A DNA stretch of 64,000 bases from Patescibacteria group bacterium (GCA_041653675.1 JBAZEY010000003.1:13284-77283); one strand, 5' to 3'. Shown: positions 1,767-64,000, numbered from the stretch's first letter. Notes: a model not told the origin generated them from the letters alone. A program made the numbers and translations.

Positions 1767-1831
1767 TTTCTAAATTATTTTAAAATAACATACAGGCCGC
1801 GATATTTTTCACGACTTGTTAGGGGGAAGGT

Positions 1832-2821: not shown

Positions 2822-2979
2822 TTCAATAATTTTATTGATGTCCTCTGATTTTTCGGAGGACAAAATAAGATCGTTGATGTTTCAAAAAACAAAAAACAAA
2901 AATCAAAAGTTATATTTTATTTTCTAGCTTCTCAAGCTTTTGACGTTTGTCTTTTGAGTTTTGAATTTATAGGAGGCGC

Positions 2980-5247
2980 ATGAAAAAATTAATCAAAAGA
3001 AAAGGCGTCGTAATCCTAATCGCGGTTTTTGTTTTGACTAGCCTTTTTACTATATATAATCAATCTGAAGCTAGTTCTCTTTCTTCGGTGAGTGATACTT
3101 TGAGCCGACAAAAGATTAGCGTGGCGGCTAATCACGAATTCGCTTTTACCTTGTCCTCGGGCACGACGGTCGTAGAAGATGAAACTATCACGGTAACATT
3201 TCCATCAACCTTTGCGTCGGGCCTGGATGGGATTGATTGCGGCGACATTGATTTATTAGAGGATTCTGTCCAAGAAAATTTAAATAATGAAGCCGGCGGT
3301 TGCGCGGCCACGGCGACGGAGTGGGGTGCGGCAGTCAGCGCGCGAATTTTGACTCTCACAGCGCCGTCTACGGCGGCAACCTATATGGATGCGAGTTCGG
3401 CCGTAATTATCCGGATTGGGGCAAACACTACGGAAGAAGGAGTGGGCGGAGAACAAATTATAAATCCTGCGAGTATTGGAAGCCACATAATTCATATAGG
3501 CGGAACATTTGGTGTTTCAAGTAATATTGCCATTGCCATTGTGACGGATGATCAAGTCGGTGTTGGCGCGAATATTAGCGCACCGACGGGCGGAGGCGCG
3601 CCTGGAACTGGTGTTACACCGCCGATTGTTTCAAATATAAGAGTTGAAAATATTCTTCAAACATCAGCAACTGTTCTTTGGGATACCAACGAACCCGCGA
3701 CTTCAGTTGTAAATTATGGCTTATCAAATAGTTATGGATCAAGCGCGACGGGTGATGTTGGCGGATTGGTAACGAGCCACAGAGTTGATTTGTCGGGGTT
3801 GACCGCCGATGCGATTTATCACTTTCAAATAGTAACAGCCGACGCGGGAGGAGCCGCGACAACCACGGGCGACGATGTCTTTGAAACTCTTTCCGGTCCG
3901 GATATAACTCCTCCGACGATTTCCGGTATTAGCGCGATCAATATAACACAAGTTGGAGCTACTGTTATTTGGACAACCAACGAACCAGCGAATTCAAAAG
4001 TAGAATACGGCTTAACTGACGCGTATGAGTTGGGAGAAGTAAGTGCCACAGATTTTGTCACGTCGCATAGTTTGGCGGTTTCAGGACTTTTGGAAAATAC
4101 AACTTATCATTTCCGCGTGACCTCGGCCGATGCTTCGGGCAATACGACGGTCTCGGGCGACAATACTTTTGTAACCTTGGCTCCGCCTGACGCGATTCCT
4201 CCGATTATTTCAAATATCAGAGTTATCAATATTACAGAAACATCGGCGACCGTAACTTGGGAAACAGATGAACGAACTACCTCCCGCGTGAGATTTGGGT
4301 TAACGGGTACTTATACCGCGGGTAATATTTTTTCCGCAGATTTGGTCACGACGCATAGCGTTAATTTAAGTTCCTTGACTCGGAGCACGCTCTATCATTT
4401 TGAAGTTTCTTCAGTTGATGGTTATGGCAATACTACGACTTCCGCGGATCAGATTTTTTCTACTTTACCCGACGCGATTCCTCCGGCCAACGTTACGGAT
4501 TTCACGGCAGTTCCAACGGCGGATTTAACAATACTTTTGAACTGGATAAATCCAGCCGATCCGGACTTCGCTGGGGTTTTGATAAAGAGAAGTTTTACGG
4601 ATTATCCGGCAAATCCCACAGAAGGCGAGATAGCCTTTGATGGCATGGCGACTTCATTTGAAGATACTAGTATTACACCCGCTAATTATAATCAGCCAAT
4701 TTATTACACAGCTTTTGCTTATGATGCGGCTGGAAATTTTGCTTCGGGCGCTATGGCAGAAGCGACAATCTCGGCTGAAATTACTTTGGAGGTTAAGGCT
4801 TGGCCAGAAAAAAGATGGCCGCGGAGCGGGAACTGGTCAACGGATGGTACGATTGAAATGCGGGAACCAGCAGATGGGACCGTTGTAGACGAGGGCACGG
4901 TTACAACTTCTGATCTTGGACAAGGCACGATTCGATTTGCTTCAACTCCCGTCGGAAACTATGATATCGGTTTTAAGGGTTTGTCTCATTTGCGAAAAAT
5001 TTTGCGCAATGTCCCGCTTGCGAGCGGCGTAAATTCTGTAGATTTTACTTTAGGAAATATTTTTTATCTTTTAGCCGGAGACGTGCATCGCTCGTCTGAC
5101 AATGTAGTAAACGCTTTGGATATTTCTACTTTGCTTGGTGCTCTTTCTACCAGTAATAATGTTGTTGACTTAAATAATGATACTGGGGTTAATTCTTTGG
5201 ATATAAATATCTTGTTGGCTAACCTAATGAAGGTTGGAGATAATTAA
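2980..5247 (+). CDS. Large secreted protein: shared N-terminal domain, four FN3/PKD-like repeats and a C-terminal dockerin-like module
   Basis: RBS AGGAGG. Signal/TM at the N-terminus. Four repeats of about 97 aa (PPI(V/I)SNIRV...T(V/A)xW(D/T)TNEP...YHF...) at nt 3616-4790. The C-terminus carries two Ca-binding-loop-like segments, DVHRSSDNVVNALDISTLL and a canonical DLNNDTGVNSLDINILL. Confidence 0.7.
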   Translation: MKKLIKRKGVVILIAVFVLTSLFTIYNQSEASSLSSVSDTLSRQKISVAANHEFAFTLSSGTTVVEDETITVTFPSTFASGLDGIDCGDIDLLEDSVQENLNNEAGGCAATATEWGAAVSARILTLTAPSTAATYMDASSAVIIRIGANTTEEGVGGEQIINPASIGSHIIHIGGTFGVSSNIAIAIVTDDQVGVGANISAPTGGGAPGTGVTPPIVSNIRVENILQTSATVLWDTNEPATSVVNYGLSNSYGSSATGDVGGLVTSHRVDLSGLTADAIYHFQIVTADAGGAATTTGDDVFETLSGPDITPPTISGISAINITQVGATVIWTTNEPANSKVEYGLTDAYELGEVSATDFVTSHSLAVSGLLENTTYHFRVTSADASGNTTVSGDNTFVTLAPPDAIPPIISNIRVINITETSATVTWETDERTTSRVRFGLTGTYTAGNIFSADLVTTHSVNLSSLTRSTLYHFEVSSVDGYGNTTTSADQIFSTLPDAIPPANVTDFTAVPTADLTILLNWINPADPDFAGVLIKRSFTDYPANPTEGEIAFDGMATSFEDTSITPANYNQPIYYTAFAYDAAGNFASGAMAEATISAEITLEVKAWPEKRWPRSGNWSTDGTIEMREPADGTVVDEGTVTTSDLGQGTIRFASTPVGNYDIGFKGLSHLRKILRNVPLASGVNSVDFTLGNIFYLLAGDVHRSSDNVVNALDISTLLGALSTSNNVVDLNNDTGVNSLDINILLANLMKVGDN
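3616..4790 (+). repeat. Four tandem FN3-like coding repeats (about 290 nt each)
   Basis: Near-identical nucleotide stretches (ccgccgattgtttcaaatataagagtt at about 3616 and cctccgattatttcaaatatcagagtt at about 4198) and the corresponding protein repeats. Confidence 0.7.
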
Positions 5248-7991: not shown

Positions 7992-10900
7992 ATGTTTAGT
8001 TCAGGAGGAGAAAAACCTAATATTAAATTACCATCCCAAAGCGGAACCAACTTAACTTTGTTGGTGTTTGCTTTGGGTATTTTGTCATTAGCAAGTATTG
8101 GAGTAATGACTCTTTCTGTTGTGAAACAACTTCGGCCGACAGCGTTCACGGCAATTAATAAACAGCTGAACTATCAAGGTAAATTACAAAACGCGGGAGG
8201 CATAACGCTCGCGGACGGAAATTACTCAATGAAGTTTTCCATTTACGACGATCCAACCGTCGGCTCGAGACTTTGGACAGAATGTGGCACAGTCGGTACG
8301 CCGACGGCTCGTACCGTCGCGGTTGCGAACGGGGTTTTCTCGGTGATGCTCGGAGATACAAATTCCAATTCTTGTCCCGGTGGAACGGATTCCAACGCCA
8401 TCACACTGGATTTTAATAGTGACAGTTATTATCTTGGTTTTACCGTGGAGTCCGATTCAGAAATGCTTCCGAGAAAACGATTGGGTGCTTCGGGTTACGC
8501 TTTCAACGCGGATTTATTAGACGGATTTAATACTTCAGCCGCCGGCGGTTCGGTCGCTTTCGTGCCGGTGACGGACGCAAGCGGACATTTAACTTTGACG
8601 CAAAATTTAATTTTGGGTGGAGTTTTAAAAAATGCAGACGGTACTGTCGGCGCGCCGAGCTATACCTTCACGAGCGACCTTGATACAGGACTTTATTATT
8701 CAGCGACACAAATAAATATTGGTGTCGGCGGAAGCACGGTGGCAAATGTAAGCGCTTCGGGTTTAGCCGTAGATACGGTCAAAACTTTAACCGCGACGAC
8801 TTTAACTTTAAAAGGCACGGTTGCCGACGGCGGAACAGCTGTTGGCGCGACGATTGGTTCCAACAGTACTCTTTCTACTACCGGCGCGAAACTTGCTTCC
8901 TTTGTAAACAACACTACTGAGAAAGCATATATAGATAAAGATGGTTATTGGAACGCCCCTAATGGTGCGGCTGGCACTCCTTCAATTACTTTTGCAAATG
9001 ATAAAGATAATGGATTTTTTTATTCTTCCGCTAATAATTGGCGGGCGGTTGCTAACGGAACTGCTATTTTAGAATTTGATGCAAGTGGCATTTATGTTGG
9101 TGGTTCAGGAAACATAGGGTCAGGTAATAATATTACTCTTACTCTTAAGAGTTTTCAGGTCGATGGTGCCGCAAATGTTGCAGTTGCTCAGGATACTTAT
9201 TATGCGTTTGTAACTGCTGGAGCTAAACTTTTTTCTTGGAAAAATCATCAAGTTGAAAAAGCATATGTTGATTATCTAGGCTCGTTCAACGCCGGAGCGG
9301 GGACAAATCTTTTACCAGCGTATTCGTTTGTTGGCGATCCAAATACTGGAATATATAATCCGAGTGCAGACCGTGTAGATTTAGTCGCAGGAGGAACCGT
9401 TCAACTCGCAATAACCTCTGGCACTATTTATTTTGATAATATGAGGGCTTTGAACTTGGTGAGTCTTGGATTAAGAGGGGCGATTGCCGACGGAGCAAGT
9501 GCGATCGGCACAAAAATGGGAAATGCTATAGCTCTTACCACTGCTGGAGCAAAGATTGTAAGTTTTTATAATGATGCTTGGGTAACTGAAAAAGCATATA
9601 TTGATAAAGACGGAAATTTTTATGGCCCCGGGGCAAATTTTTCCGGTCTCTCTGTCTCGTCGGCTGTTTATACCGACGCTTCAAAAAATTTAACTTCTAC
9701 AGCTCCGGCCACGGGCACGATTGGATATTGGTCCCGCGCCACGACAACTTTGTCTCCAGCTACAGCCAATGATATTGTCGCGGTCACCGGCAACTCCGGA
9801 GATCTTTTAACTTTAACTTCAACCGCAACCGGCGCTTCTAACAAAGCTTTAAGTATTGCCGCTTCCGGCGCAACAGTTGGCACAGATTACGGCGCATATA
9901 TTTCAAATACCGGCGCGGCCACAACAAATGTCGGTCTCTACACGACCGCCTCTGGCGCAACAAATAACTACGCTGCGATTTTTGACGCGGGGTATGTTGG
10001 TATTGGTAATACAACTCCAACAGCGTCTTTGACTTTAACTCAGGCTGCCGGCACGACTGGCACTCCCTCAGCTTTTATTATTACGGGGGGTGCTCACACC
10101 GGAATAACTGCGGCGACAGAAGATATTGGGGTGAATTTAAATTTTTCAGCGAATAAAACTTGGGCGGCCGGCGCCGGACCATTGGCCACTCAAAGGGAAG
10201 TCGTGGTTCAAGCCCCAACTTATATTGGTGATGTAGGCGGAGCATTGACCATGACTGATGCGGCGACATTCTATATCTCTGGTGCGCCTACGGCCGGGGC
10301 GAATATGACTATTAGTAATCCGTGGGCATTATGGATTGATGCCGGAAATGTTAGACTAGATGGAAATTTAAAAGTAGATTCACTTTCCGCTTCCTCCGCT
10401 GTTTATACTGACGCTTCCAAAAATTTAACTTCAACCCCGCCTGCTACGGGCGCGATCGGATATTGGTCTCGTACCGGCACGACTCTCTCTCCCGCGACGG
10501 CGAATGATGTGGTTAATGTCGATTCCAATACTGTGGGTGCAGCTATTAGTTCTACGGCGACGAATAGTGGCGCGGTTGCAAACTCTGGCGGTAATTTTTT
10601 GGCTGCCGGAACTAGCGGAGCAATGGGCGTTTATGGTGGCGCGAGCGGCGCTGGCACGGTTTACGGTGTTTATGGCCAAGCTTCTAATCCTGGGGCAGTA
10701 ACAAATTATGGTGTTTATGGAACGGCCGCCGGAGATACGGGCGTCGGTGTTTTTGGCTCTGCTACGGACACTGGCGCAGCTATAAACTACGGCGGTTACT
10801 TTACGGCCGCTGGAACGGGTGGCGCAGTTGGTATTTATAGTGAAGCGACTGGAACTGGCGGTGCGGCTGTTTCCGGTCTAGCTAGTGCTACTACCAGTGC

Positions 10901-13900
10901 TCTTAATTTTGGCGGATATTTTGAAGCAAGAGGTGACCATAGCTGGAGCTTCGGAGTTAAGGGATATCTTCCGAATAGTGTTGACGGTAAGGCAGTAGTC
11001 GGACATGCTGCGGAAACGACATCAACAAATTATGGCGGTTGGTTTCAATCAGATGGCGCAACGGGCATTGGAGTTTATGGTAAATCAACTTATACATCAA
11101 CGGCGACTGTTAATTATGGCGGTTGGTTTAGGGCAGACGGTCTGGCGGGTCGCGGCGTTTATGGCGAAACGACCACTGTGGGAGCAACCATTACTCACGG
11201 CGGCGATTTTTGGGCGGCGAGTACGGGGACAAGTACAAGTGGCGCGCGCGGCGTAGCAACTGGCGCTGGAACGGTTTATGGCGTTGAGGGTCTTGCTCAA
11301 AGTACCGGCGCGGTTACAAACTTCGGCGGCTATTTTACTGCTAGCGGTGAGACTGGCCGCGGCGTTTATGGCATGGCTGACAACACTGCCGTTGCGGCAA
11401 CCAACTATGGCGGTCACTTTACGGCCGCGGGTGCAGGTGCCAACACTACAGGCGTTTATGGTGAAGGCAGCAGCTCCGGCGCGGTTACAAATTATGGTGG
11501 TCGCTTTATCGCTGCAGGTGAAACAGGCATTGGCGCTTATGGCAATGCGACTTCAACTGGCGCGACAGTTAACTATGGCGGAAAATTTTATGCTGGAGGT
11601 TCGGGAGGAGCATACGGCGTCTATGGCGAAGCCAACAATGTTTCCGGAACAAACTATGGCGTCTATGGCAAGGTAACTTCTGGTTATGCTGTTTATGGTG
11701 ACCACGGAACAGTTTTTGGTTATTTGGCTGATAAAAATTATGGAGTTTATGGCCAATACAGCGCGACTCAGTTTGGCTATATAGGCGATTCAACTTATGG
11801 TGTTTATGCCCGTGGGACGATTGGCGTTTATGGAACAGACGGAACAAGATATGGACAATTGGGAACGGGAAGTAATGGTGTGTATGGTTATTATGACGCC
11901 ACGCATTATGGTTATATTGGCGGCGCAACCAATGGTGTGTATGGCACTGGCGGCACAGGCGAAGGCGTGCGCGGCGAAGCAACGACTGGTTATGGCGTTA
12001 TTGGTTTAGCTAGCGATACCGGCGCGGTCACAAATTATGGCGGATATTTTTCAGCGGCCGGCGATACTGGTCAAGGCGTTTATGGAACAGCTCCTGACGC
12101 TGGCGCGGTTATAAACTATGGCGGATATTTCTCTTCCGCCGGTACAGGCACCGGCGCGACCGGCGTCCTTGGCACAACTGCTGCCGCTGGTACGGTTTAT
12201 GGCGTTCAAGGAAAAGCGACGAACACGGGCGCTGTCACAAACTACGGCGGATATTTCTTGGCGTATGGCGACACGGGCCAAGGTATCTATGCCGGTGGCA
12301 TGGATACCGGCGCGGTCACAAATTATGGCGGTTATTTTGAAGCCGCTGGCACAACTGGCCGCGCGGTTTTTGGTGCGGCTCTGGCAACCGGAGCGTCAAC
12401 TGCGTATGGTGGATATTTTACATCGGCAAGTGATACTGGCCGCGGCGTTTATGGCGCAGCGACTGATACCGGCGCGGTTGTAAATTACGGCGGATATTTT
12501 TCTTCTGCCGGCACGGGCACTGGCGCAGCCGGCGTTTATGGCACAAGCGCTGCCACGGGAACGGTTTACGGAGTGCAAGGTTACGCTTCAAACACAGGCG
12601 CTTACGAAAATTATGGCGGTTATTTTGTCGCCAATGGCACAACTAGTCGCGGCGTTTATGGTCAGGCCAATACTTCTGGCGCGACTGTAAGTTACGGCGG
12701 TTATTTTTCATCTTCTAGTACTGGCGCAGGCACAGCTGGCGTTTACGGTATAGGCGCCGGCGCGGGTACGGTTTATGGCGTTACTGGTTTAGCTAGCAAT
12801 ACCGGCGCGGTTACAAATTATGGCGGCGTTTTTTCGGCCGCTGGCACAACTGGCCGCGCGGTGTATGGCGAAGCAAGTAGCTCGGGGGCGACAGCGAACT
12901 ATGGAGGTTACTTTACGGCAGCCGGAACAGGTGGCGCTCGAGGCGTCTTTGGTACTGCCAGCGGTGCGAGCGGCACCAATTACGGAATTTACGGCAGCGT
13001 AACTTCTGCAACAGGCTACGCAGGTTATTTCACCGGCGGTTACGGCGTCTACGCGAGTTTGGCGCATATTGCCGGAACCGGAGCGGGCGGAGAAGAGCTT
13101 GACGTGGAAGGACAAATCCAGTTTGATCTTGATGGTACAACCGATACATTAATTGGTGTTTGTAAAAGCGTGGCTGATGGGGCGGGCGTGGAAGCTGATG
13201 TAGAATTCCGTGATTGTACTTCAACGCCTTCCGATATTGCCGAATGGTATGATACAACTGGCACTGAGGCCGGGGATGTTGTTGCGGCAACCGACGACAC
13301 AGTTACTTTCCAAGGTGAAATGTATGATCCATTAACTGGCTTGCCGCTCGGCACACAAGAAACTATTACGGCAACAATTTTGACTCCCTCATCAGAGCCG
13401 TATCAAAAAACACTCCTTGGCGTAGTTTCTACAAACCCTTATGAATCTTTTGGTAAGGGCGTGATCGATGTTTCACATTTGCCAAATCCAATAGCTGTTG
13501 TTGGCCGTGTGCCAACTAAAGTTTCCACTGAAAACGGCGTCATCCGTCCGGGCGATCCGATTACTTCTTCATCAGTTACCGGCGTGGGCATGAAAGCAAC
13601 TAAACCAGGCATGATTATTGGTTACGCGGTTGATCACTATTCTGGCGCTGGCATTGGAACAGCTTTTGTTAACATTAATCCAGGCTGGCATTCTGGTTTT
13701 GCTATAAATACCGACGGAGTGATTTCTTTATTTGATGATGATTTTACTTTTAATACTTCCGGCATAGCTGATGGAATAATTCAGGGATATAATTCCAAAG
13801 GCTTGGCGTTCCGCGGATCTGGTTGGGACGGTGCCGCGGCGCAAAATATAGAAATGAAAATTGGTAACGTTGTTACGGACGCGTCAAATTATAAATTATC

Positions 13901-15230
13901 AGTTCTAAATAATGCGGGAACCGAAGTAGCTTATCTTGATCAGGCTGGAGCTCTTGGACTTTCTGGGAAATTTTATCCTGCCTCGCCGACTGGCGCGCAG
14001 ACCGACGCTTACATTTTTTATCGCAATAACCGCATTAGAACCAACGCCTCTGGGTGGGCGACCGGTTCATTTGATTTTGCGGAAATGTTTTTATCACGCG
14101 AATTATTAGAAGCCGGCGATGTTGTCATCTTGGATGAAACAACAAATGAGTATGTGAAAAAATCGACCGCGGCTTATGATAAGATGGCGCTCGGCATTGT
14201 TTCCACCGAACCAGGTTTTTTGGCCGGAACTAATGTTAATTTTGATGATCCTTCGGCAGATCAAGGTTATCCGATTGCTTTGGCTGGCCGTGTGCCGACA
14301 AAAGTTTCCGCGGAAAACGGACCAATCAGGCCTGGCGATTTTCTTACGACTTCAACTACTTCTGGCGCAGCCATGAAAGCTACGGAATCGGGCATAATCA
14401 TCGGCACGGCGCTTGAAAGTTTTGATGGCCCAGGAGTTGGTTTAATCAAAGTTTTTGTAAATCTTGCTTGGTACAACGTAACCGGAGACGTGACGCCGGT
14501 TAGTGAAATGTCACAGCTCACTCTTTCTGGTGATTTGAATATGAATGGTAATTACATTTTGAATGTTGGGAAAATTGTCGGACAAGATGAAAAATGGAGT
14601 ATTGATGAAAATGGAATTTTAAAAATTAAATTAATCGCGGAAGACGCGACAGAAAAAGAAATGTTTGGACTTTCTTCGGCCAAAGTGGAACTGACTTTGT
14701 CCGGAACCGACCGGCTGGAAAATGGGACCAAGATGATAGATCTCAGTTTAATTGATCCAGAATTTGTTAAAAATATTTCGGCCGAGACGCCGCTTAAAGT
14801 TGTGGTAACTTTAAACGAACAAGCTTATGGAGTCTACGTTGCTGAAAAAACTGCTTACAGTTTCCGCGTGGCGGAATTGAACGCCGGAACTTCCGACGCG
14901 GCTTTTGATTGGATTGTAATTGCGAGACGAAAAGGCTATGATGATCCGCCGCCGACCGAGGTTGCACCTCCAACCGAACCAGCTCCGGCTCCGAGTGAAC
15001 CGGCACCAGTAGAATCAACTCCGAGTGAGCCAGCGCCAAGCGAACCAGCACCGTCAGAGCCTGCACCTTCTGAACCAATTCCGACTGAACCAGCCCCCGC
15101 GCCAACCGAACCGGTACCAACTGAACCAGCCCCCGCCGAGCCGACTCCTGCGCCGACTGAACCAGCTCCAAGTGAACCCGCACCGGCGCCAACAGAACCT
15201 GCTCCAAGCGAACCGGCTCCGGCAATATAA
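7992..15230 (+). CDS. Giant (2412 aa) N-terminally anchored surface fiber-like protein
   Basis: N-terminal TM anchor (LTLLVFALGILSLASIGVMTL). A conserved domain (LNYQGKL...YYLGFTVESDSEMLPRKRLGASGYAFNADLLDG) is shared with 15415..17829. Two repeats of about 230 aa (SSAVYTDASKNLTST...GYVGIGNTTPTASLTL, tail-fibre-like motif). About 35 repeats of 20 aa (NYGGYF(T/S)AAGxTGxGVYG). A C-terminal module occurs twice (D(I/F)AE(W/M)...GDVV...LG(V/I)VST(N/E)P...AGRVPTKVSxENGxIRPGDxxTTS...AMKAT). Pro-rich PAPSE/PAPTE tail. Confidence 0.8.
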   Translation: MFSSGGEKPNIKLPSQSGTNLTLLVFALGILSLASIGVMTLSVVKQLRPTAFTAINKQLNYQGKLQNAGGITLADGNYSMKFSIYDDPTVGSRLWTECGTVGTPTARTVAVANGVFSVMLGDTNSNSCPGGTDSNAITLDFNSDSYYLGFTVESDSEMLPRKRLGASGYAFNADLLDGFNTSAAGGSVAFVPVTDASGHLTLTQNLILGGVLKNADGTVGAPSYTFTSDLDTGLYYSATQINIGVGGSTVANVSASGLAVDTVKTLTATTLTLKGTVADGGTAVGATIGSNSTLSTTGAKLASFVNNTTEKAYIDKDGYWNAPNGAAGTPSITFANDKDNGFFYSSANNWRAVANGTAILEFDASGIYVGGSGNIGSGNNITLTLKSFQVDGAANVAVAQDTYYAFVTAGAKLFSWKNHQVEKAYVDYLGSFNAGAGTNLLPAYSFVGDPNTGIYNPSADRVDLVAGGTVQLAITSGTIYFDNMRALNLVSLGLRGAIADGASAIGTKMGNAIALTTAGAKIVSFYNDAWVTEKAYIDKDGNFYGPGANFSGLSVSSAVYTDASKNLTSTAPATGTIGYWSRATTTLSPATANDIVAVTGNSGDLLTLTSTATGASNKALSIAASGATVGTDYGAYISNTGAATTNVGLYTTASGATNNYAAIFDAGYVGIGNTTPTASLTLTQAAGTTGTPSAFIITGGAHTGITAATEDIGVNLNFSANKTWAAGAGPLATQREVVVQAPTYIGDVGGALTMTDAATFYISGAPTAGANMTISNPWALWIDAGNVRLDGNLKVDSLSASSAVYTDASKNLTSTPPATGAIGYWSRTGTTLSPATANDVVNVDSNTVGAAISSTATNSGAVANSGGNFLAAGTSGAMGVYGGASGAGTVYGVYGQASNPGAVTNYGVYGTAAGDTGVGVFGSATDTGAAINYGGYFTAAGTGGAVGIYSEATGTGGAAVSGLASATTSALNFGGYFEARGDHSWSFGVKGYLPNSVDGKAVVGHAAETTSTNYGGWFQSDGATGIGVYGKSTYTSTATVNYGGWFRADGLAGRGVYGETTTVGATITHGGDFWAASTGTSTSGARGVATGAGTVYGVEGLAQSTGAVTNFGGYFTASGETGRGVYGMADNTAVAATNYGGHFTAAGAGANTTGVYGEGSSSGAVTNYGGRFIAAGETGIGAYGNATSTGATVNYGGKFYAGGSGGAYGVYGEANNVSGTNYGVYGKVTSGYAVYGDHGTVFGYLADKNYGVYGQYSATQFGYIGDSTYGVYARGTIGVYGTDGTRYGQLGTGSNGVYGYYDATHYGYIGGATNGVYGTGGTGEGVRGEATTGYGVIGLASDTGAVTNYGGYFSAAGDTGQGVYGTAPDAGAVINYGGYFSSAGTGTGATGVLGTTAAAGTVYGVQGKATNTGAVTNYGGYFLAYGDTGQGIYAGGMDTGAVTNYGGYFEAAGTTGRAVFGAALATGASTAYGGYFTSASDTGRGVYGAATDTGAVVNYGGYFSSAGTGTGAAGVYGTSAATGTVYGVQGYASNTGAYENYGGYFVANGTTSRGVYGQANTSGATVSYGGYFSSSSTGAGTAGVYGIGAGAGTVYGVTGLASNTGAVTNYGGVFSAAGTTGRAVYGEASSSGATANYGGYFTAAGTGGARGVFGTASGASGTNYGIYGSVTSATGYAGYFTGGYGVYASLAHIAGTGAGGEELDVEGQIQFDLDGTTDTLIGVCKSVADGAGVEADVEFRDCTSTPSDIAEWYDTTGTEAGDVVAATDDTVTFQGEMYDPLTGLPLGTQETITATILTPSSEPYQKTLLGVVSTNPYESFGKGVIDVSHLPNPIAVVGRVPTKVSTENGVIRPGDPITSSSVTGVGMKATKPGMIIGYAVDHYSGAGIGTAFVNINPGWHSGFAINTDGVISLFDDDFTFNTSGIADGIIQGYNSKGLAFRGSGWDGAAAQNIEMKIGNVVTDASNYKLSVLNNAGTEVAYLDQAGALGLSGKFYPASPTGAQTDAYIFYRNNRIRTNASGWATGSFDFAEMFLSRELLEAGDVVILDETTNEYVKKSTAAYDKMALGIVSTEPGFLAGTNVNFDDPSADQGYPIALAGRVPTKVSAENGPIRPGDFLTTSTTSGAAMKATESGIIIGTALESFDGPGVGLIKVFVNLAWYNVTGDVTPVSEMSQLTLSGDLNMNGNYILNVGKIVGQDEKWSIDENGILKIKLIAEDATEKEMFGLSSAKVELTLSGTDRLENGTKMIDLSLIDPEFVKNISAETPLKVVVTLNEQAYGVYVAEKTAYSFRVAELNAGTSDAAFDWIVIARRKGYDDPPPTEVAPPTEPAPAPSEPAPVESTPSEPAPSEPAPSEPAPSEPIPTEPAPAPTEPVPTEPAPAEPTPAPTEPAPSEPAPAPTEPAPSEPAPAI
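10590..13060 (+). repeat. About 35 tandem copies of a 60-nt / 20-aa Gly-Tyr repeat (NYGGYFxAAGxxGxGVYG) inside the giant gene
   Basis: Highly periodic nucleotide and protein repeat. It generates many spurious antisense ORFs in the six-frame track. Confidence 0.85.
14944..15227 (+). repeat. Pro-rich PAPSE/PAPTE low-complexity tandem repeat encoding the C-terminal tail
   Basis: gaaccagc(a/t)cc(g/a)(a/t)(g/c)(c/t)ga-type repeats encoding APSEPAPSEPAPTEPAPAP. Confidence 0.8.
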
Positions 15231-18834: not shown

Positions 18835-20184
18835 ATGAAAAAGGGGAACGGAAGGATCAAGGGGCTCTTTTTGATCGTCATCGCGACGATCGCGATTCTC
18901 GCCTATGCCGCTTGTGGCGACGACGAGCAGTTGTGTCCCAGCGCAGGGGACTGCATGGGACGGGAGTGCGGGCCGGATCCGGTTTGCATGACATCGTGCG
19001 GTGCATGCTCAATCGGAGAAGCATGTTCGGCGGACGGGATATGTATGCCGGACTGCGTGTCCAACTGCGCCGGCCGCGAGTGCGGATGGGACCCGGTCTG
19101 CGGCAACATGTCTTGCGGGACATGCCCGGCGGATCGGCCCAACTGCAATGCCACTACGGGGACTTGTTCGACTGATGGCCCGGATTGTCCGGCAGACCGC
19201 GACTGCGCCGGCCGCGAGTGCGGCCTCGATCCAATCTGCAGCGTTTCCTGCGGGACGTGTTCGGGCGGTGAGACGTGCAGTTCATCAGGAAGATGTGTTT
19301 GCGCTCCCAACTGCTCCGGCCGCGAGTGTGGGCTTGACCCAGTTTGTAGCGTCTCCTGCGGGACGTGTTCAAGCCCAGAGACATGCACTCCATCTGGAAC
19401 GTGCAACTGTACCAGGAACTGCGCCGGCCGTGAATGTGGTCCCGATCCGATTTGTGGCGTTTCCTGCGGCTCGTGTTCAGCTGGCTCATGCACCACGACG
19501 GGCACGTGCACCACGTGTTCATCCGGCGCAACGGAGTCGTGCGCCAATCTTTGCGGTTCGGCTGGCACGCGGAGTTGTAGTGTTTCGGGCGAATGGGGGC
19601 GGTGTCAGGGTGGGACTGCTCTGGTTCCTGTGGCTCTTACGGATGACACCTACATCGACAACGACCCCCCAACTGTCAACCACGGAACCGAAGAATTCGT
19701 GATCATAGGAAAGGGCGTTGCCGCTGACCCACGTCGCCTAGCATTCTTCCGTTTTGATGCGGATTTGGATACGTGGCGGGCGGAGGGCGCCACGTCGATA
19801 ATTCAGGCCGACCTGAGCGTATACGTGAGTGACCGCTTAGGCAGTCAACTTGAACTCTATGGTCTCTCAAATACGACCGGTGGTACTTGCGTGTGGAATG
19901 AAGATACACTGACGTATTACACCCAAGTCACCGCAGGAAGCACGAACTGCTATCCGGACCCGCTTGGCTGGGTCTACCCCGACATTTCGATGATTGTGGA
20001 TTACTCGATGGGCTACGTGGATATCACGGCGTATGTCCAGTGGCTTTGGGACGGCGCGGAGAACGACGGCTTCATGTTGACGAACAATTCGGGGAGTTCC
20101 ACTCCGTTTGCACGGTTGATTATCAACAGCACCGAGAATTCCCGGGATCCACCGAGCGTTTTGGTGAGAGTATCCTGCGAATAG
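18835..20184 (+). CDS. GC-rich secreted/lipoprotein: about 7 Cys-rich repeats (C..GRECG.DP.C..SCG.CS) plus a C-terminal DNRLRE-like domain
   Basis: RBS AAGGAGGAG. Signal LFLIVIATIAILAYAAC. Repeats such as DCAGRECGLDPICSVSCGTCSGGETCSSSGRC. The C-terminal domain carries the DNRLRE-family landmarks (DDTYIDNDPPTVNHG..., RLAFFRFDADL, WNEDTLTYYT, VDITAYVQWLWDGAENDGFML, INSTENSRDPPSVLVRV). Confidence 0.6.
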   Translation: MKKGNGRIKGLFLIVIATIAILAYAACGDDEQLCPSAGDCMGRECGPDPVCMTSCGACSIGEACSADGICMPDCVSNCAGRECGWDPVCGNMSCGTCPADRPNCNATTGTCSTDGPDCPADRDCAGRECGLDPICSVSCGTCSGGETCSSSGRCVCAPNCSGRECGLDPVCSVSCGTCSSPETCTPSGTCNCTRNCAGRECGPDPICGVSCGSCSAGSCTTTGTCTTCSSGATESCANLCGSAGTRSCSVSGEWGRCQGGTALVPVALTDDTYIDNDPPTVNHGTEEFVIIGKGVAADPRRLAFFRFDADLDTWRAEGATSIIQADLSVYVSDRLGSQLELYGLSNTTGGTCVWNEDTLTYYTQVTAGSTNCYPDPLGWVYPDISMIVDYSMGYVDITAYVQWLWDGAENDGFMLTNNSGSSTPFARLIINSTENSRDPPSVLVRVSCE

Positions 20185-52129: not shown

Positions 52130-52204
52130 TGGGGTGGCTACTGGGAGTTGAACCCAGGCTAGCGGGACCACAACCCGCTGTTCTACCGTTAAACTATAGC
52201 CACC
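52130..52204 (-). tRNA. tRNA-His (GTG) with encoded G-1 and CCA
   Basis: G-1 pairs with C73. Acceptor GTGGCTA/TAGCCAC. Anticodon loop TTGTGGT. T-arm CTGGG TTCAACT CCCAG. Confidence 0.85.
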
Positions 52205-52213
52205 ATTAAATTC

Positions 52214-52288
52214 TGGTGACCCCAGCAGGAATCGAACCTACATCTTCACCTTAGAAGGGTGTTGCTCTGTCCATTGAGCTATGGGGCC
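52214..52288 (-). tRNA. tRNA-Arg (TCT) with encoded CCA
   Basis: Acceptor GGCCCCA/TGGGGTC. D-loop with GG. Anticodon loop CTTCTAA. T-loop TTCGATT. Confidence 0.8.
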
Positions 52289-52346: not shown

Positions 52347-53264
52347 TTATTTGCCGCGTTGGCGGCCGTGAAAACTTTTATGGACGTCACGGAGTTGTTG
52401 ATTTGTAATATGCGTATAAATTTGAGTTGTTGTAATAGATGAATGGCCGAGCATGGCTTGGACCGAACGGATGTCGGCGCCATTCATTAATAGATCAGTG
52501 GCATAAGAATGACGCATAGTGTGCGGCGTAACTTTTTTTGTGATGCCGGCAATCTTGGAATATTTTTTCACAAGCCGTTCCACGCTCCGGGGAGTGAGAG
52601 CTCCTTCACTCTCGTGCGCTCGGTCATGGGAAACAAACAAAAATGGTGAAACATCTTGGCGTCCCTCTAAATATTGTTTGATCCAGAATTTCGCCTGGTT
52701 TGATAAAAAGACTATGCGCGGTTTGTCGCCCTTGCCGCGAACCGTGAATTCTTCTTTTTTCAAATTGACTTGTTCCTTTTTTAAATTTGCCAACTCGGAA
52801 ACGCGGAGTCCCGTAGAAAAAAGCATTTCCACAATGGCCTTATCTCTTTTTTTGATAATTTCTGGCGACTCGGTCAAGGTCGGCGCTTCAAGAATTCGTT
52901 CCAAATCAGATCCTTCCAAAAAATCCACCACACGTTCGGGCATTTTTCCCAATTCAATTTTTTCCGCCGACATTGTTTTGATGTCGCGCTTGGCCAGATA
53001 TTTCAGAAAAGCTCGGAGAGCGATCAGATGGTAATTTTGAGTATTTTTTTTCAGGGTGCGGCCGTGCTCGTCGGCAAAACGATTTAGCCAAAGCCGGTAT
53101 TGCCGGACTTTTTCCTGGGTAATGCCGGAAGGGGAAGTGTCTCCCGCCCATTCGTTAAATCTTTTCAAATAAAAATCATAATTCCGCACAGTTTTGGATG
53201 AACGGTTTTTTTCTATTTCCAGATATTCAAGAAATTGGGTTATTAGATTGTTGAGGTTGGCCAT
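52347..53264 (-). CDS. Tyrosine recombinase XerC/XerD family
   Basis: N-terminal SAM-like core-binding domain. Catalytic HTMRHSYATDLL...LGHSSITTTQIYTH. Confidence 0.85.
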   Translation of the reverse strand: MANLNNLITQFLEYLEIEKNRSSKTVRNYDFYLKRFNEWAGDTSPSGITQEKVRQYRLWLNRFADEHGRTLKKNTQNYHLIALRAFLKYLAKRDIKTMSAEKIELGKMPERVVDFLEGSDLERILEAPTLTESPEIIKKRDKAIVEMLFSTGLRVSELANLKKEQVNLKKEEFTVRGKGDKPRIVFLSNQAKFWIKQYLEGRQDVSPFLFVSHDRAHESEGALTPRSVERLVKKYSKIAGITKKVTPHTMRHSYATDLLMNGADIRSVQAMLGHSSITTTQIYTHITNQQLRDVHKSFHGRQRGK

Positions 53265-59173: not shown

Positions 59174-60214
59174 ATGTCTTCAAAAATTTTATCTGCGGCG
59201 ATTGTTGGATTAGACGCGGAACTTGTGGAGGTGGAGGCCGACATTTCGCCGGGACTTAGTCATTTTACGATAGTTGGTTTGCCGGATATGGCCGTGCAGG
59301 AGTCGCGTGAGCGGGTAAGGGCGGCTATTAAAAATAGTGAATTGCCGTTTCCCCGGACGCGCGTCACGGTTAATTTGGCTCCGGCCGATTTAAAAAAGGA
59401 AGGGCCGTCTTATGATTTGCCCATTGCCATTGCCATTCTTCTGGCTTCGAAATTTTTAAGATTACCGGCGGCGGCGAGTGCAAGAGAAACAGCCGGGGAA
59501 AATCTTGAACTTTTGCCGAGCACGAAAGCTGTGGCAAATCTCTTTTGTCCCCAATCTCTTTTTGTTGGCGAGTTGGCGCTGGATGGAATTTTGCGGCCGG
59601 TGAATGGAATACTGGCCATTGCTTCCGCCGCTCGGGCGAGGGGAATTAAAACTTTGTATGTTCCGGAAACTAACGCCCGAGAAGCAAGTTTGATCGAAAA
59701 TTTGGAAATTTTTTCCGTAAAAAACATTTTTCAGTTGGTAGAACATTTGGCGGGAAAAAATTTAATTGCGCCGTTTTCTCGTGAGGAACCTTTTAATTTT
59801 AACGAGCCAGTCGGAAGTGATGAAGAAAATTTTGATATGGCATATGTGCGCGGACAAGAGTATGCAAAGCGAGCTCTGGAAATTGTCGCCGCCGGTGGCC
59901 ACAACCTCCTGATGTCCGGGCCGCCTGGTTCCGGGAAAACACTGCTTTCAAAAACATTGCCGTCAATTTTGCCGGCGCTTACGATTGATGAGGCGCTTGA
60001 AGTAACAAGAATCTATTCCGTCGCCGGACTTTTACCGCCGGATTTGCCACTTATGACGCGACGGCCGTTTAGAAATCCGCATCACACGGCATCAAATGTC
60101 TCGCTCGTGGGCGGTGGAACTTGGCCGCGGCCGGGAGAAGTAAGTTTGTCTCATCGCGGAGTTTTATTTTTAAGAATCGTCCCGCAATTTATGCAAACAG
60201 TAGTATACTCATAA
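59174..60214 (+). pseudogene. comM: comM/yifB (Mg-chelatase-like AAA+ ATPase) truncated after the sensor-1 region by an insertion
   Basis: Lon-like N-domain plus AAA+ (LLMSGPPGSGKTLL). It reads GVLFL and then diverges (RIVPQFMQTVVYS stop) where LDELPEF and about 170 more residues are expected. Confidence 0.7.
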
Positions 60215-60306
60215 AACTACCAATACTCTCTGAAACCGATAGGAGACGGGAGGTTTTGGCCGTAAATCTGGGAATGCACGGCGCAAAAAGGACTTAGTGA
60301 AATTCT

Positions 60307-60348
60307 ACAAAATTCGACAAAATTCGACAAAATCCGACAAAATCCGAC
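60307..60348. repeat. Four tandem copies of ACAAAATYCG
   Basis: acaaaattcg acaaaattcg acaaaatccg acaaaatccg. Confidence 0.8.
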
Positions 60349-60388
60349 TAATTAGGGTAAAATATTTTGGGTTTTAGGAACTAAAATC

Positions 60389-60414
60389 AGACAAAAGCAG
60401 ACAAAAGCAGACAC
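60389..60414. repeat. About 2.6 tandem copies of CAGACAAAAG
   Basis: cagacaaaag cagacaaaag cagaca. Confidence 0.8.
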
Positions 60415-60504
60415 TTTTAGGGATAAATGTTGGGAATTTTACAAGTTTAGTATGGGACAGAACGTAACACCTTTATTAAAATCTAATTTTGCGGTAAAGT
60501 TAAA

Positions 60505-62190
60505 TTGATTTTAAGAACAACTATGGCTCGCAAAATAAACTATGACAACTGGTCAAAGGAAGAATTAGCCAAAGAATTACGCCGTATTAAGGAAACAAAA
60601 TACGGGCTTGTTTGGCATAGGGATTTGCCGGAAGAAAAAATTGACACGCTCATCAATCCTGACGCGCGCACGCCGAACGAAATGTTTCCGAATGAAATGG
60701 CCGGCAGGCCGTTTCCGATTTTGAAAGAAACCAAAGGCAAAGAGATAAACGGCGATAAAGGCAAGCCAGTAAATTTGCTTATTGAGGGCGACAATTATCA
60801 CTCGCTAGCGGTTTTAAATTTCACGCACCAAGAAGCGATTGATTTGATATATATCGATCCGCCCTATAACACAGGAGAAAATGACTTTATATACAATGAT
60901 AAAATGGTTGATAAGGAAGACCCCTTTAGACACAGCAAGTGGCTCTCTTTTATGGAAAAAAGATTAAAACTTGCTAAAAACCTTCTTAAATCTGACGGAG
61001 TACTTTTTGTGAGTATAGATGATAACGAACAAGCACCACTCAAATTATTATGCGATGAGATTTTTGACGACGGTCACTTTCTTGGAACTTTAACCTGGAT
61101 TAATAAAACGAAACCAGTTAATTCGGGTAAGGCGAAATATCAAATACAGCAGAATACGGAATATATTTTTGCCTATTCAAAAACAAAAAGAGAAGATTTT
61201 CTCGGCTTTGATTTAACAAAACAAGGGGAAAGAAAGTATGCTCTCTCGGACCAAGGAGGCGACTACAGACTAATAGACATCGAGGATTCTGATCGCGGGA
61301 GAAAAAAACGGGACACAATGAAATTTGAAATTTTGGGAATTAAGCCGGGAACCGGCAAGCGTTGGAAAATTGGACAATTGGAAATAAACAACCTGATAAA
61401 GACGGGTAGAATTGTTAAAGTAGAAGGAAAAATAAAAAGGAAGATATATAGTTATGAGGAATCAGGATTTGTTGAAAATCCTTTTTGGTCACATCTTGAA
61501 GCCGTTGGTACTGCCGAAGATGGCAAAAAAGAGCTCTCGGATATTATTGGGCAGGATCATGGCTTTGATACTGTAAAGCCCGTAAATTTGATAGAAAGTT
61601 TACTGCAGCATTTTACGAAAAATGTATGCGTCCTTGATTTTTTTGCTGGTTCGGGGTCGACAGGTCAAGCAGTTCTTGATTTGAATAAAGAAGGGGGCAA
61701 TCGGCGATTTATTCTTTGCACTAACAACGATAACAATATCTGCTTGGATGTCTGCTACCCTCGCTTAAAAAAAGTCATCAAGGGCTATAAAAATACCAAG
61801 GGCGAAAATATCGCCGGACTTGGCGGTAATTTAAAATATTATACTTGCGATTTTGTTGAGGCCGAACCGACTGACCAAAACAAACGAAAACTTGTGAGCG
61901 AATCAACGGAAATGCTTTGCATCCGCGAAAACGCTTTCGATCTAGTACAAGACGAAAGCGATTTTAAGATTTTTAAGAACGAAAAAAAATATCTTGGAAT
62001 TGTTTTTTACGAAGAAGCGATTGGCGATTTTAAAAAAGCGATTAAAAAGATTAAAGGTCATTTTAACACGTACGTTTTCTCGCTCGGCGACGAGCCGCAC
62101 GAAAAACAGTTTACTGATGTAAAAAGAAAAGTCACGCTCTGCGCCATCCCGGAAGTGATTTTGAAAGTTTATAGGGAGATTTTTAAATAA
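60505..62190 (+). CDS. Beta-class N6-adenine DNA methyltransferase (type III Mod-like), no Res partner
   Basis: Motif IV IYIDPPYNTGENDFIYND lies before motif I VLDFFAGSGSTGQAV. Also WLSFMEKRLKLAKNLLKSDGVLFVSIDDNE and TEYIFAYSK. Confidence 0.8.
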   Translation: MILRTTMARKINYDNWSKEELAKELRRIKETKYGLVWHRDLPEEKIDTLINPDARTPNEMFPNEMAGRPFPILKETKGKEINGDKGKPVNLLIEGDNYHSLAVLNFTHQEAIDLIYIDPPYNTGENDFIYNDKMVDKEDPFRHSKWLSFMEKRLKLAKNLLKSDGVLFVSIDDNEQAPLKLLCDEIFDDGHFLGTLTWINKTKPVNSGKAKYQIQQNTEYIFAYSKTKREDFLGFDLTKQGERKYALSDQGGDYRLIDIEDSDRGRKKRDTMKFEILGIKPGTGKRWKIGQLEINNLIKTGRIVKVEGKIKRKIYSYEESGFVENPFWSHLEAVGTAEDGKKELSDIIGQDHGFDTVKPVNLIESLLQHFTKNVCVLDFFAGSGSTGQAVLDLNKEGGNRRFILCTNNDNNICLDVCYPRLKKVIKGYKNTKGENIAGLGGNLKYYTCDFVEAEPTDQNKRKLVSESTEMLCIRENAFDLVQDESDFKIFKNEKKYLGIVFYEEAIGDFKKAIKKIKGHFNTYVFSLGDEPHEKQFTDVKRKVTLCAIPEVILKVYREIFK

Positions 62191-62202
62191 AAAATCGAAA
62201 AT

Positions 62203-62388
62203 ATGAGCAGACAACAAACAAATTCTGGACAAATAAGGAAAAAAAGAGAGGACACCCTAATCAAGAATATCGAGAAAAAGTATAATGTTGATTTTGGTGT
62301 ACGCGATGATATGAAATTAGGCACTTACTTAAGGGAAAAAGGACTGCCGTCGCTTTCCAAAGCTATAGAAAAGGTAACAAAGGAATGA
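62203..62388 (+). CDS. Small hypothetical protein (61 aa)
   Basis: ORF only. Basic N-terminus. Confidence 0.3.
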   Translation: MSRQQTNSGQIRKKREDTLIKNIEKKYNVDFGVRDDMKLGTYLREKGLPSLSKAIEKVTKE

Positions 62389-62391
62389 TAT

Positions 62392-62904
62392 ATGATATCA
62401 GAAGCTTTTAAGAGAAATGTTTTATGGAATCTTGAACAAGTTGCTGTTCAGGTTGGCCATGCCGAAAAAGTTAGGACTAGAGCTAGAAGCGGATATTATA
62501 AAGCTGCTATAATTTTAGCCGCTGCTATCGTCGAAGCACTTGTGTATAAAATTTTAGAACAAAATAATACCCTGAAGATGCCGCTGGAAGATTGGCGATG
62601 TATTCGTTCAAATTTTTTGTCTCAGCGGTATAAAAGCGACAAAGGAGAGAGACTAAGTGTCTGTGAAAGAATAAGACCACAGTTTGAATTAAATAAACAA
62701 ACGGATTTTAAAAAAGTTAATGAAGTATGTCTTGCTTTAAAGATATTTCCAAAAAAAATTTTTAAGAAAATAGAAAAAATTAGAACATTGAGAAATAAAA
62801 TCCATATTCAGGGGCTAGATAATATAGATAGGAGTTATACAAAACATGAGCTGGAATTTATTTCGTCCGTAATGGATGAGTTACTTAGTAAAATAAAAGC
62901 ATAG
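62392..62904 (+). CDS. Hypothetical protein, possible HEPN-like (C-terminal R-x6-H)
   Basis: RTLRNKIH near the C-terminus, in an alpha-helical context. Weak. Confidence 0.3.
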   Translation: MISEAFKRNVLWNLEQVAVQVGHAEKVRTRARSGYYKAAIILAAAIVEALVYKILEQNNTLKMPLEDWRCIRSNFLSQRYKSDKGERLSVCERIRPQFELNKQTDFKKVNEVCLALKIFPKKIFKKIEKIRTLRNKIHIQGLDNIDRSYTKHELEFISSVMDELLSKIKA

Positions 62905-62981
62905 GCATTTAACATGAGGCATGGAAAAAACAATTAAACTATGTTGATTTAATTTAAAGATTATTTTTAAAAATAGCTTAT

Positions 62982-63950
62982 ATGAAAGAACCAATAAAAG
63001 AATTAGCTAATGTAGAGAATATAAAAGAAGATTTGATTAAAGAATTTGAGCGATCGTTAAATGAATTTAAGAAAAAAGTTGATTGTTTTATTTACCCGCT
63101 AATTATCCCGCCGCTTAATAGCATAGACGAAGATGTACTTTTCGAAGTTTTTCCTGATTTGAAGAAAATAGGAAAACAAAAACGTTTACACGTGCTTTTG
63201 TATTCATATGGAGGTGATGCCCACACAGCATTTCATATAGGTCGCCTTTTGCAAGATTATGCTACAGAGGAGTTATATATTTATATTCTGAGAGAAGCTA
63301 AGAGTGCAGCAACACTGTTAGCGAGTTCAGCTGACAAGATTATTTTTTCTGAAATTTCAGAATTGGGGCCGATGGATCCTCAGATTAAAGATTCCGAGGG
63401 AGGAGAAAGATTTAGTCCGCTTGCCATAAAACATGTTATGGATTTTTTGTCCGATGAAAGCAGAAAAGGACATTCAGAGCTAGTCAAGACACTGGCCGCG
63501 AAGTTACCAACGACGCTTCAATTAGGAGAACATTTGAAATCCCTAGAAACTGGAAAAGATTATCTTTTCAAACTTCTTAAGACTAGAATGTTTAAAGAAG
63601 ATAGCGATGAAATTGTGCAAAAAATTGCAGAAAAGTTAGTGACGGGATACCCGGATCACGGTTATTGTATTGATTTTAAAGAAGCGTTAGAGATTGGCTT
63701 AAAAGTTGAAAAAGTTGATCCAAAAATAGAAAATGAACTTTTTTCGGTTATGGAGAATTATAAAAAAGTTTGGGATACATTTGAAAAATTGATACGAGAC
63801 GCAAAAAATAGAGATGATCAAAAAATTAAGGATGCAATGAAATTATTGAAAGGGATTAGAACCGTTGCGACTAATATTATAGAAGGTGAAATTAAAGAAA
63901 ATCTGGAACCAAAAAATCAAGGCAGCACTGAGTTAATAGAACAAAGATAA
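62982..63950 (+). CDS. ClpP/crotonase-fold serine-protease-like protein
   Basis: LHVLLYSYGGDAHTAFHIGRLLQDY...KSAATLLASSADKIIFSEISELGPMDPQI follows the ClpP/SppA fold pattern. Confidence 0.5.
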   Translation: MKEPIKELANVENIKEDLIKEFERSLNEFKKKVDCFIYPLIIPPLNSIDEDVLFEVFPDLKKIGKQKRLHVLLYSYGGDAHTAFHIGRLLQDYATEELYIYILREAKSAATLLASSADKIIFSEISELGPMDPQIKDSEGGERFSPLAIKHVMDFLSDESRKGHSELVKTLAAKLPTTLQLGEHLKSLETGKDYLFKLLKTRMFKEDSDEIVQKIAEKLVTGYPDHGYCIDFKEALEIGLKVEKVDPKIENELFSVMENYKKVWDTFEKLIRDAKNRDDQKIKDAMKLLKGIRTVATNIIEGEIKENLEPKNQGSTELIEQR

Positions 63951-64000
63951 ATTTATGTGGGTTGAATTTAAAGATTATCAAGAAAAAGCCATTGTAAAGT

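Follow-up and report, generated by a model that had tools for sequence, protein, structure and literature searches.

An 11.4-kb element has probably entered comM of a Patescibacteria group bacterium through its own large serine recombinase

SPbeta, skin and Listeria phi10403S are elements bearing large serine recombinases (LSRs) that split a host gene, and their precise excision can restore it. With the SSV1-type archaeal integrases and mycobacteriophage BPs, which use tyrosine recombinases, attP lies within a gene of the element and integration alters its product. Magnesium chelatase genes, with which comM is grouped, are described as targets of several kinds of element: the main text of a survey of predicted site-specific LSRs gives Mg-chelatase homologues as the targets of 12.4% of them and reports an enrichment of competence genes among LSR targets (Durrant et al. 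2022, PMC10083194); in Wolbachia, sr1WO prophages of phage WO sit within the magnesium chelatase gene, whose two halves flank them (PMC9203015); and for AbaR and other islands in comM of Acinetobacter, the loss of ComM has been proposed to reduce heterologous recombination and hence curing (PMC11472951). In engineered att pairs of phiC31 and Bxb1 the central dinucleotide alone sets the pairing, and no cross-reaction occurs (PMC3936721, PMC8971409). Here we analyze a stretch of 64,000 nucleotides from a Patescibacteria group bacterium (GCA_041653675.1, JBAZEY010000003.1:13284-77283; the whole stretch is called the window) in which comM is interrupted by an 11,425-bp integrative element. A sequence-only reading of the window had called comM an integration hotspot for genomic islands. 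LSR integration into comM and Mg-chelatase genes is thus already known, and the present locus is a Patescibacteria case; our literature search for a serine recombinase together with comM in Patescibacteria found no such report.

The interruption is visible in the window as an open reading frame (ORF) of 346 aa at 59174..60214, which consists of the 5' part of comM, 13 foreign codons and a TAA stop:

59174..60172, plus strand: 5' part of comM (YifB/ComM), 333 codons, ending ...SHRGVLFL in Walker B.
60154..60187, no strand: attL, with the host half-site at 60154-60169, the crossover TT at 60170-60171 and the right arm of the element, AAGAATCGTCCCGCAA, at 60172-60187.
60173..60214, plus strand: 13 out-of-frame codons (RIVPQFMQTVVYS) and TAA, element DNA that terminates the truncated ComM (from the sequence and the ORF list).

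Pfam detects ChlI (PF13541, 5.9e-42) in this ORF, and Mg_chelatase (PF01078) over positions 1-123 of 207 only. The last ComM-like residue is the Leu of ...SHRGVLFL (codon 60170-60172), in the hydrophobic Walker B strand and directly before the catalytic Asp-Glu. Pfam and the ORF list thus bear out what had been read from the sequence, namely that ComM homology is lost after GVLFL and that the frame ends 13 codons on. The C-terminus is indeed missing, but its length, first put at about 170 aa, is 202 aa. No further piece of comM is present within the 64-kb window, and the GC fraction drops from ~0.46-0.51 in comM to ~0.35-0.39 in the insert. ComM is severed between its Walker A and its Walker B/arginine-finger halves and, judged from the sequence, should be inactive.

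The 3' fragment of comM, the second boundary and a recombinase gene all lie just past the end of the window, confirming that an integrated element splits the gene. We reached them through contig L004, found by exact-protein look-ups, which overlaps window positions 60589-64000 (3.4 kb at 100% identity; the L004 coordinate plus 60588 is the window coordinate). Past the window end the element runs for another 7.6 kb on L004 to attR (L004 11007-11009). The 3' part of comM follows directly after the recombinase, comprises 202 codons and matches Pfam PF01078 and PF13335 (Mg_chelatase_C). Joining window 59174-60172 to L004 11010-11618 gives a single 535-aa ORF in which ...GVLFL is followed by DELPEF...; it covers 100% of the 533-537-aa YifB-family proteins, with the N-terminal domain, the AAA+ core and Mg_chelatase_C all present. 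An intact ComM (P0001, on contig L006) is 98% identical to the rejoined product, and its gene aligns without a gap over 1608 nt at 93.5% DNA identity. A second intact ComM, on L007, is 90% identical at the protein level and has the same neighbors (rpsO, NYN, pnp, dksA-like, lspA, comM and a LysM/M23 peptidase gene). This gapless colinearity shows that the insertion is precise and conservative, with no target bases gained or lost.

The recombinase beside attR, the integrase that an island of this kind was expected to carry, is an LSR of 580 aa counted from the ATG at L004 9281; the longest ORF, 9221-11023, opens at an upstream TTG. It matches Resolvase (PF00239, 2.5e-36) and Recombinase (PF07508, 1.4e-14), and Zn_ribbon_recom (PF13408) at 5.8e-4, which is below the curated cut-off, with the invariant Cys pairs C322/C325 and C362/C365 present. 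The motif RVSTDDQ is found as well, and the nucleophile Ser19 is invariant in 20 homologues.

Direct-repeat att sites had been anticipated, but the sites found are of LSR type. attL reads ...GTTTTATTTTTA on one side of the junction and AGAATCGTCCCGCAA on the other, and attR, which the LSR gene abuts, reads TTGCGAGACAATAGTGTTA and then GACGAACTT; the two have only TTA in common, that is, the 2-nt crossover TT and one chance base. The crossover TT forms the first two bases of the codon for Leu-333, the last residue before the DE of Walker B (LFL, then DE). The reconstructed attP, TTGCGAGAC-AATAGTG-TT-AAGAATC-GTCCCGCAA, is an imperfect dyad centered on TT, with 15/25 positions complementary. The palindromic recombinase arms, TTGYGRGAC and GTCCCRCAA, stand at a fixed distance from the crossover across the family of related elements described below. 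The virtual attP junction of the excised form contains GAGACAATAGTGTTAAGAATCGTCCCGC, and the virtual attB junction of the restored comM contains GTTTTATTTTTAGACGAACTTCC. The junctions have the anatomy of LSR sites, and neither the long direct repeats of tyrosine integrases nor a target duplication. As a side observation, the 9-mer TTTTAAGAA, which spans the crossover (60168-60176), recurs at 60509-60517 before the start of mod, probably by chance in AT-rich DNA.

We therefore propose that the element entered comM through its own LSR, by conservative site-specific recombination, and put the probability of this reading at about 0.88. By analogy with known LSRs, recombinase dimers would bind attP and attB, make double-strand cuts with a 2-nt stagger, rotate the half-sites by 180 degrees and religate them. 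Patescibacteria are thought to rely heavily on DNA uptake. As suggested for comM-targeting elements elsewhere, the loss of ComM should lower the recombination of heterologous transforming DNA and so shield the element from curing.

The genes of the element that lie within the window are the following:

60523..62190, plus strand: methyltransferase Mod of a type III restriction-modification (R-M) system, 555 aa (Pfam N6_N4_Mtase 1.3e-35; PADLOC MTase_III 4.7e-74).
62203..62388, plus strand: 61-aa ORF without family match.
62392..62904, plus strand: 170-aa ORF without family match.
62982..63950, plus strand: ClpP-like serine protease of the SDH type, 322 aa (Pfam SDH_protease 8.4e-14; phrog_11747 5.1e-36).
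63955..64000, plus strand, continuing on L004: start of the type III Res subunit, 745 aa when complete (Pfam ResIII 5.7e-19; PADLOC REase_III 3.2e-22).

On L004 the protease gene is followed by res, small ORFs, a 236-aa ORF, a gene for an HTH_36 initiator (phrog_270), one for a DnaC-like loader (phrog_50), the LSR gene and the 3' part of comM. The element is probably self-replicating. Both subunits of the type III R-M pair are encoded; unusually, three genes intervene. This stretch (62203-63950; the 61-aa and 170-aa ORFs and the SDH-type protease) splits mod from res, which are adjacent in the related L008/L012 element, and could have been inserted as a module or serve the R-M system as an accessory. 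Pfam and PHROG scans found no partition genes in the element and no informative match for its small ORFs of 61, 67, 82 and 132 aa.

Tandem repeats of 22-24 nt lie inside genes for HTH_36-type initiators, at L004 8083-8138 (23 nt), L014 9508-9574 and L024 8794-8882. Because the period in L004 and L014 is not a multiple of three, the repetition exists at the DNA level, and these repeats are likely to be origin iterons. The lambda O gene likewise holds origin iterons inside an initiator gene.

The window element belongs to a family. The recombinase has 229 homologues, and the source-given names among the 120 listed are all Patescibacteria/candidate-phyla or generic. Scans of genomes and metagenomes gathered 45 related loci. 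All loci of sufficient length, even where the LSR is only 44% identical, have a ComM 3' fragment that begins at residue 329-334 downstream of the recombinase; six loci also show the 5' fragment, ending at residue 333-338, and the ComM fragments break at one residue in about 25 related loci. Complete elements measure 8-13 kb, and each combines the recombinase with a replication module, which encodes an HTH_36 initiator in some elements and a Prim-Pol/AAA_25 primase-helicase in others. No virion or conjugation genes were found in the complete elements of the family, and a scan of IMG/VR with the recombinase alignment returned no relatives. An identical recombinase, P0153, occurs on 24 contigs in the same context each time, with no differing site use.

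The cargo of the relatives is mostly defense: type III and AlwI-type R-M systems, methyltransferases and the cyclic oligonucleotide-based antiphage signaling system (CBASS). In L057 (12424-13959) a CBASS pair, a CD-NTase with a Cap15-like effector, lies between the recombinase and the 3' part of comM, and the L033 element (element coordinates 1234-5115) encodes an AlwI-type restriction enzyme and a methyltransferase. The family seems to ferry defense systems, and its elements bring type III and type II R-M and CBASS into genomes of the candidate phyla radiation. Six loci (L008 10022-10525, L013, L024, L035, L045 and L055 9028-9552) have a second, short serine-recombinase ORF directly upstream of the LSR gene; it encodes ~167-220 aa, the catalytic domain only, is 35-43% identical to the LSR N-terminus and is not present in the window element.

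Some points weigh against entry through the LSR as proposed: the right half of the element was taken from other assemblies, outside the window, and neither an excised circle, nor an empty site of the same strain, nor a recombination directionality factor was found. Among other accounts of the insert, the one that survives best is compatible with LSR-mediated entry and holds that the element intervenes in comM in a regulated way, as skin, SPbeta or Listeria phi10403S do in their host genes, and excises to restore comM. The insertion is exactly reversible in sequence, a relative exists in a free attP form (L016, below), and known gene-restoring elements use LSRs; against this, neither a directionality factor nor a regulatory link was found and the cargo resembles selfish defense genes, and we hold regulated excision to be improbable. 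A slightly poorer case can be made for a temperate phage or a satellite resembling the phage-inducible chromosomal islands. The size and the layout of integrase, replication module and cargo are satellite-like, the replication genes match the phage families phrog_270 and phrog_50, and the SDH-type protease weakly matches head-maturation protease families (2.5e-6). However, capsid, portal, terminase, tail and lysis genes are missing from this element and from five other complete ones, the IMG/VR scan gave no relatives, and a tailed phage would need more than 11.4 kb.

That the insert is an AbaR/Tn6022-like transposon, Tn7-like and guided by TnsD, for which comM is the classic target in Acinetobacter (PMC11472951), has next to no chance of being correct: no TnsA/B/C/D-like protein was found among the element proteins scanned, the gapless alignment of the rejoined gene with its intact relative leaves no room for a target-site duplication, and each end is one half of a palindromic att site, with a serine recombinase gene next to it. 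Equally negligible is an artefact of sequencing or assembly, a frameshift or a chimeric contig, with the true comM running from 60172 into GACGAACTTCC: chimeras do occur in metagenome assemblies and the window stops short of the second boundary, but the junction is present at 100% identity in three further assemblies (ENA ERZ27247358, Logan SRR6484325 and Logan SRR18595300), exactly the missing 202 codons adjoin the recombinase on the downstream contig, and about 25 related loci are broken at the same codon. Thus no sequencing error near 60173 hides a full-length comM, and the C-terminal part is not fused elsewhere but stands unfused 11.4 kb downstream. Intein, intron and frameshift readings were rejected, as the frame is not kept and the insert is an 11.4-kb multi-gene element.

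With the LSR retained as the route of entry, the att sites of the family show a further feature. The crossover dinucleotide is formed by the first two bases of the host codon (TT in TTR, CT in CTN, AT in ATN), and the site used always matches. An intact extra palindrome on the LSR side of attR is present in 13/15 of the TT- or AT-using loci and in 0/9 of the CT-using ones (Fisher p = 4e-5); it lies 50-75 nt upstream, and its center is mostly CT. Conversely, the CT-using loci with a visible attL (L019, L029 and L033) have a complete TT- or AT-centered palindrome just inside attL. Alignments reveal three independent sets in which homologous attP regions were resolved at the upstream or at the downstream site: L019 against L018/L022, L029 against L040, and L033 against L052. 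A 6.6-kb metagenome contig, L016, encodes a related recombinase and carries an unrecombined attP region at 3481-3586 with both sites 63 nt apart and the full tail of the recombinase gene; it is a free, or at least a non-comM, form of such an element as judged from its sequence, and its ends show no overlap that would mark it as a closed circle. Three sites (CT, TT and AT) are present in L013 and L055, both of which used AT. In L037 and L055, whose centers are the palindromic AT, the element is inverted relative to comM, as a symmetric center permits either orientation; such inversion is the behavior reported for symmetrised sites (10.1101/2025.01.03.631226). In the window element, site A (TTGTGGGACAACAATG-CT-AAGAATGGTCTCACAA, center at L004 10935-10936) is intact; it falls within the LSR gene, and site B (TT), the one used, follows 63 nt downstream.

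An LSR requires an identical central dinucleotide in attP and attB. Since the centers must match, one element with two or three attP sites could enter hosts whichever spelling of the target codon they have, CTN, TTR or ATN. We consider it likely that the tandem attP copies are alternative crossover sites and that both are functional; their differing centers would also block recombination between the copies. Some loci fit this poorly: L027 has no second site near the used one, that of L017 is 540 nt upstream, and L025 has the odd center GC. In L056, another exception, 2.6 kb of genes lie between the sites. At the L025 junction (~2370-2392) GCC replaces the Leu codon, so that GC could be a fourth type of center, a host with Ala at this position, or a mutated junction.

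The extra palindromes might instead be accessory or regulatory binding sites for the recombinase, like res sites II and III, or neutral duplications. Small serine recombinases do use such sites, and the extra site of the window clade, being within the LSR gene, could serve autoregulation. This is unlikely, given that homologous attP regions were resolved at differing sites in three independent sets and that the center of the used site always agrees with the host codon. Several attP sites per cell are expected to be biologically unlikely (10.1101/2025.01.03.631226), and the multi-attP elements, if confirmed, would run counter to this expectation. In the library searched, the literature on natural tandem or dual attP sites comprised only engineered examples or unrelated papers. 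If confirmed, alternative crossover sites would explain how an element tied to one site in a coding sequence can reach a wider range of hosts although that site varies synonymously, and genome engineering would gain naturally occurring attP sets, orthogonal to one another, together with their recombinases.

In the window clade both attP sites lie inside the 3' end of the LSR gene, where the left arm encodes L(R/W)DN, and integration at site B detaches the end of the gene:

60172..60297, plus strand: detached 3' end of the recombinase gene, 41 codons (KNRPAIYANSSILIKLPILSETDRRREVLAVNLGMHGAKRT) and TAG, in the LSR frame only in the attP form.

The tail codons occupy 60172-60294 and the stop codon 60295-60297. 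Because attP is inside the LSR gene, the free and integrated states encode different recombinases: the virtual free-form enzyme has 617 aa against 580 aa in the integrated state, in which the ORF extends 14 nt into comM and ends ...NSV-RRTS, four residues replacing the 41-aa tail. The tail is conserved as a protein in L015, L016, L055 and L056, and synonymous changes outnumber non-synonymous ones in three of six pairs. Among the window, L015 and L016 the excess is large (e.g., 9 against 2 over 15 codons, and 7 against 0); in comparison with the more distant L056 the two kinds are about equal. The tail belongs to actual ORFs in L016 and L056, and in L055 it follows the third site. The block just inside attL that is conserved between the window, L015 and L016 is this coding tail and not a known RNA; Rfam scans of the whole window, and a permissive one of 60100-60600, returned only tRNAs and one chance match.

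A regulatory role for the tail swap, in direction or stability, is possible but doubtful, and the detached tail may be dispensable, which speaks against such a role. If true, the swap would be a new way for a serine integrase to sense its own integration. For the arrangement as a whole we lean, with some reserve, towards ordered attP sets (CT, TT, AT) that hedge against the codon choice at the Leu/Met/Ile of Walker B, combined with a switch between enzymes of 617 and 580 aa and a possible control of directionality or stability.

Between the tail and mod lie two arrays of 10-nt repeats:

60300..60348, plus strand: array 1, 4.9 copies of the 10-nt unit AAATTCGACA / AAATCCGACA (Tandem Repeats Finder score 77).
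60383..60413, plus strand: array 2, 3.1 copies of the 10-nt unit AAAAGCAGAC (Tandem Repeats Finder score 55).

The sequence-only reading had placed tandem 10-nt repeats at the junction; Tandem Repeats Finder shows that they are real, but they begin 127 nt inside the insert, three bases past the TAG that closes the tail, and stop 110 nt short of mod. The arrays are 77% alike and have in common the core GACAAAA at a 10-nt pitch, and each is followed by TTAGGG(T/A)TAAAT...TTGGG. About nine independent arrays score at least 50 in the 64 kb and only these two have period 10, which argues that they did not arise by chance. GACAAAA clusters are found nowhere else in the window or the element. A promoter scan gave at best 9 of 12 consensus matches, some of them within the arrays, to which we attach little weight.

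The leading, still tentative, prediction is a lineage-specific operator or promoter-region array for a DNA-binding protein of the element. The copy number, identical in all four assemblies, weighs against it. A functionless product of slippage is somewhat less probable. Iterons of a replication origin, or the binding sites for partition proteins or the recombinase suggested on first reading, are less probable again. Two direct-repeat sets at helical pitch, with at least three regularly spaced repeats, surround an AT-rich stretch of 34 nt, the element encodes an initiator and a helicase loader, and L013 and L055 have tandem AAATCCGA units between their attP sites B and C, with period 9 and in coding sequence, so that the unit may be inherited within this clade. 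On the other side, the 22-24-nt repeats within the initiator genes of L004, L014 and L024 are a better candidate for the origin, and the initiator gene is 7.6 kb from the arrays in the integrated map. Recombinase or partition sites taken by themselves are very improbable: the recombinase sites are the arms TTGYGRGAC...GTCCCRCAA, which bear no likeness to the arrays, par genes were not found in the element, and the left ends of six relatives (L015, L017, L019, L027, L029 and L033) have no such arrays.

Elsewhere in the window, far from comM, long tandem repeats with scores of 106-290 occur in a G+C-rich stretch at 14988-15223 and 19202-19479 (36-nt units, and a 108-nt unit repeated 2.6 times); they probably encode a repetitive surface or secreted protein. 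A 305-aa tyrosine recombinase is encoded at ~52347-53264 (L001 3174-4091, minus strand) beside tRNA-His and tRNA-Arg (52130-52288). The syntenic L007 has this gene in the corresponding position upstream of rpsO, which points to a resident Xer-like gene and away from a second island.

Compared with the described systems, the window element agrees with the LSR elements of Durrant et al. (PMC10083194) in enzyme class, target gene family, site specificity and position within coding sequence, and differs in its Patescibacteria host; tandem alternative attP sites and a split tail do not appear in the main text of that survey, as searched. The nearest recombinases in annotated phage and plasmid collections are at most ~30% identical. 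Like phage WO sr1WO, whose recombinase is a distant match at 25% identity, the element uses an LSR and splits an Mg-chelatase gene, but WO is a tailed phage of 20-65 kb whereas the window element has 11.4 kb and no virion genes. With AbaR/Tn6022 it shares the interruption of comM, a cargo for defense or resistance and a proposed gain from lowered transformation; those islands are Tn7-like, TnsD-guided and duplicate their target, in contrast to the conservative serine-recombinase crossover at the present locus. SPbeta, skin and phi10403S have the same gene-splitting LSR layout (for the SPbeta integrase, see 10.1101/2025.01.03.631226), but for the window element no link to a developmental or competence program was found. 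In SSV1 and BPs integration also alters a gene of the element, but here it is the recombinase's own gene that is altered, the enzyme is a serine recombinase, and the exchange is confined to its last 41 residues. Finally, the orthogonal phiC31 and Bxb1 sets are laboratory constructs, whereas the arrangement described here appears to be natural, with centers that match the synonymous or nearly synonymous codons of one target.

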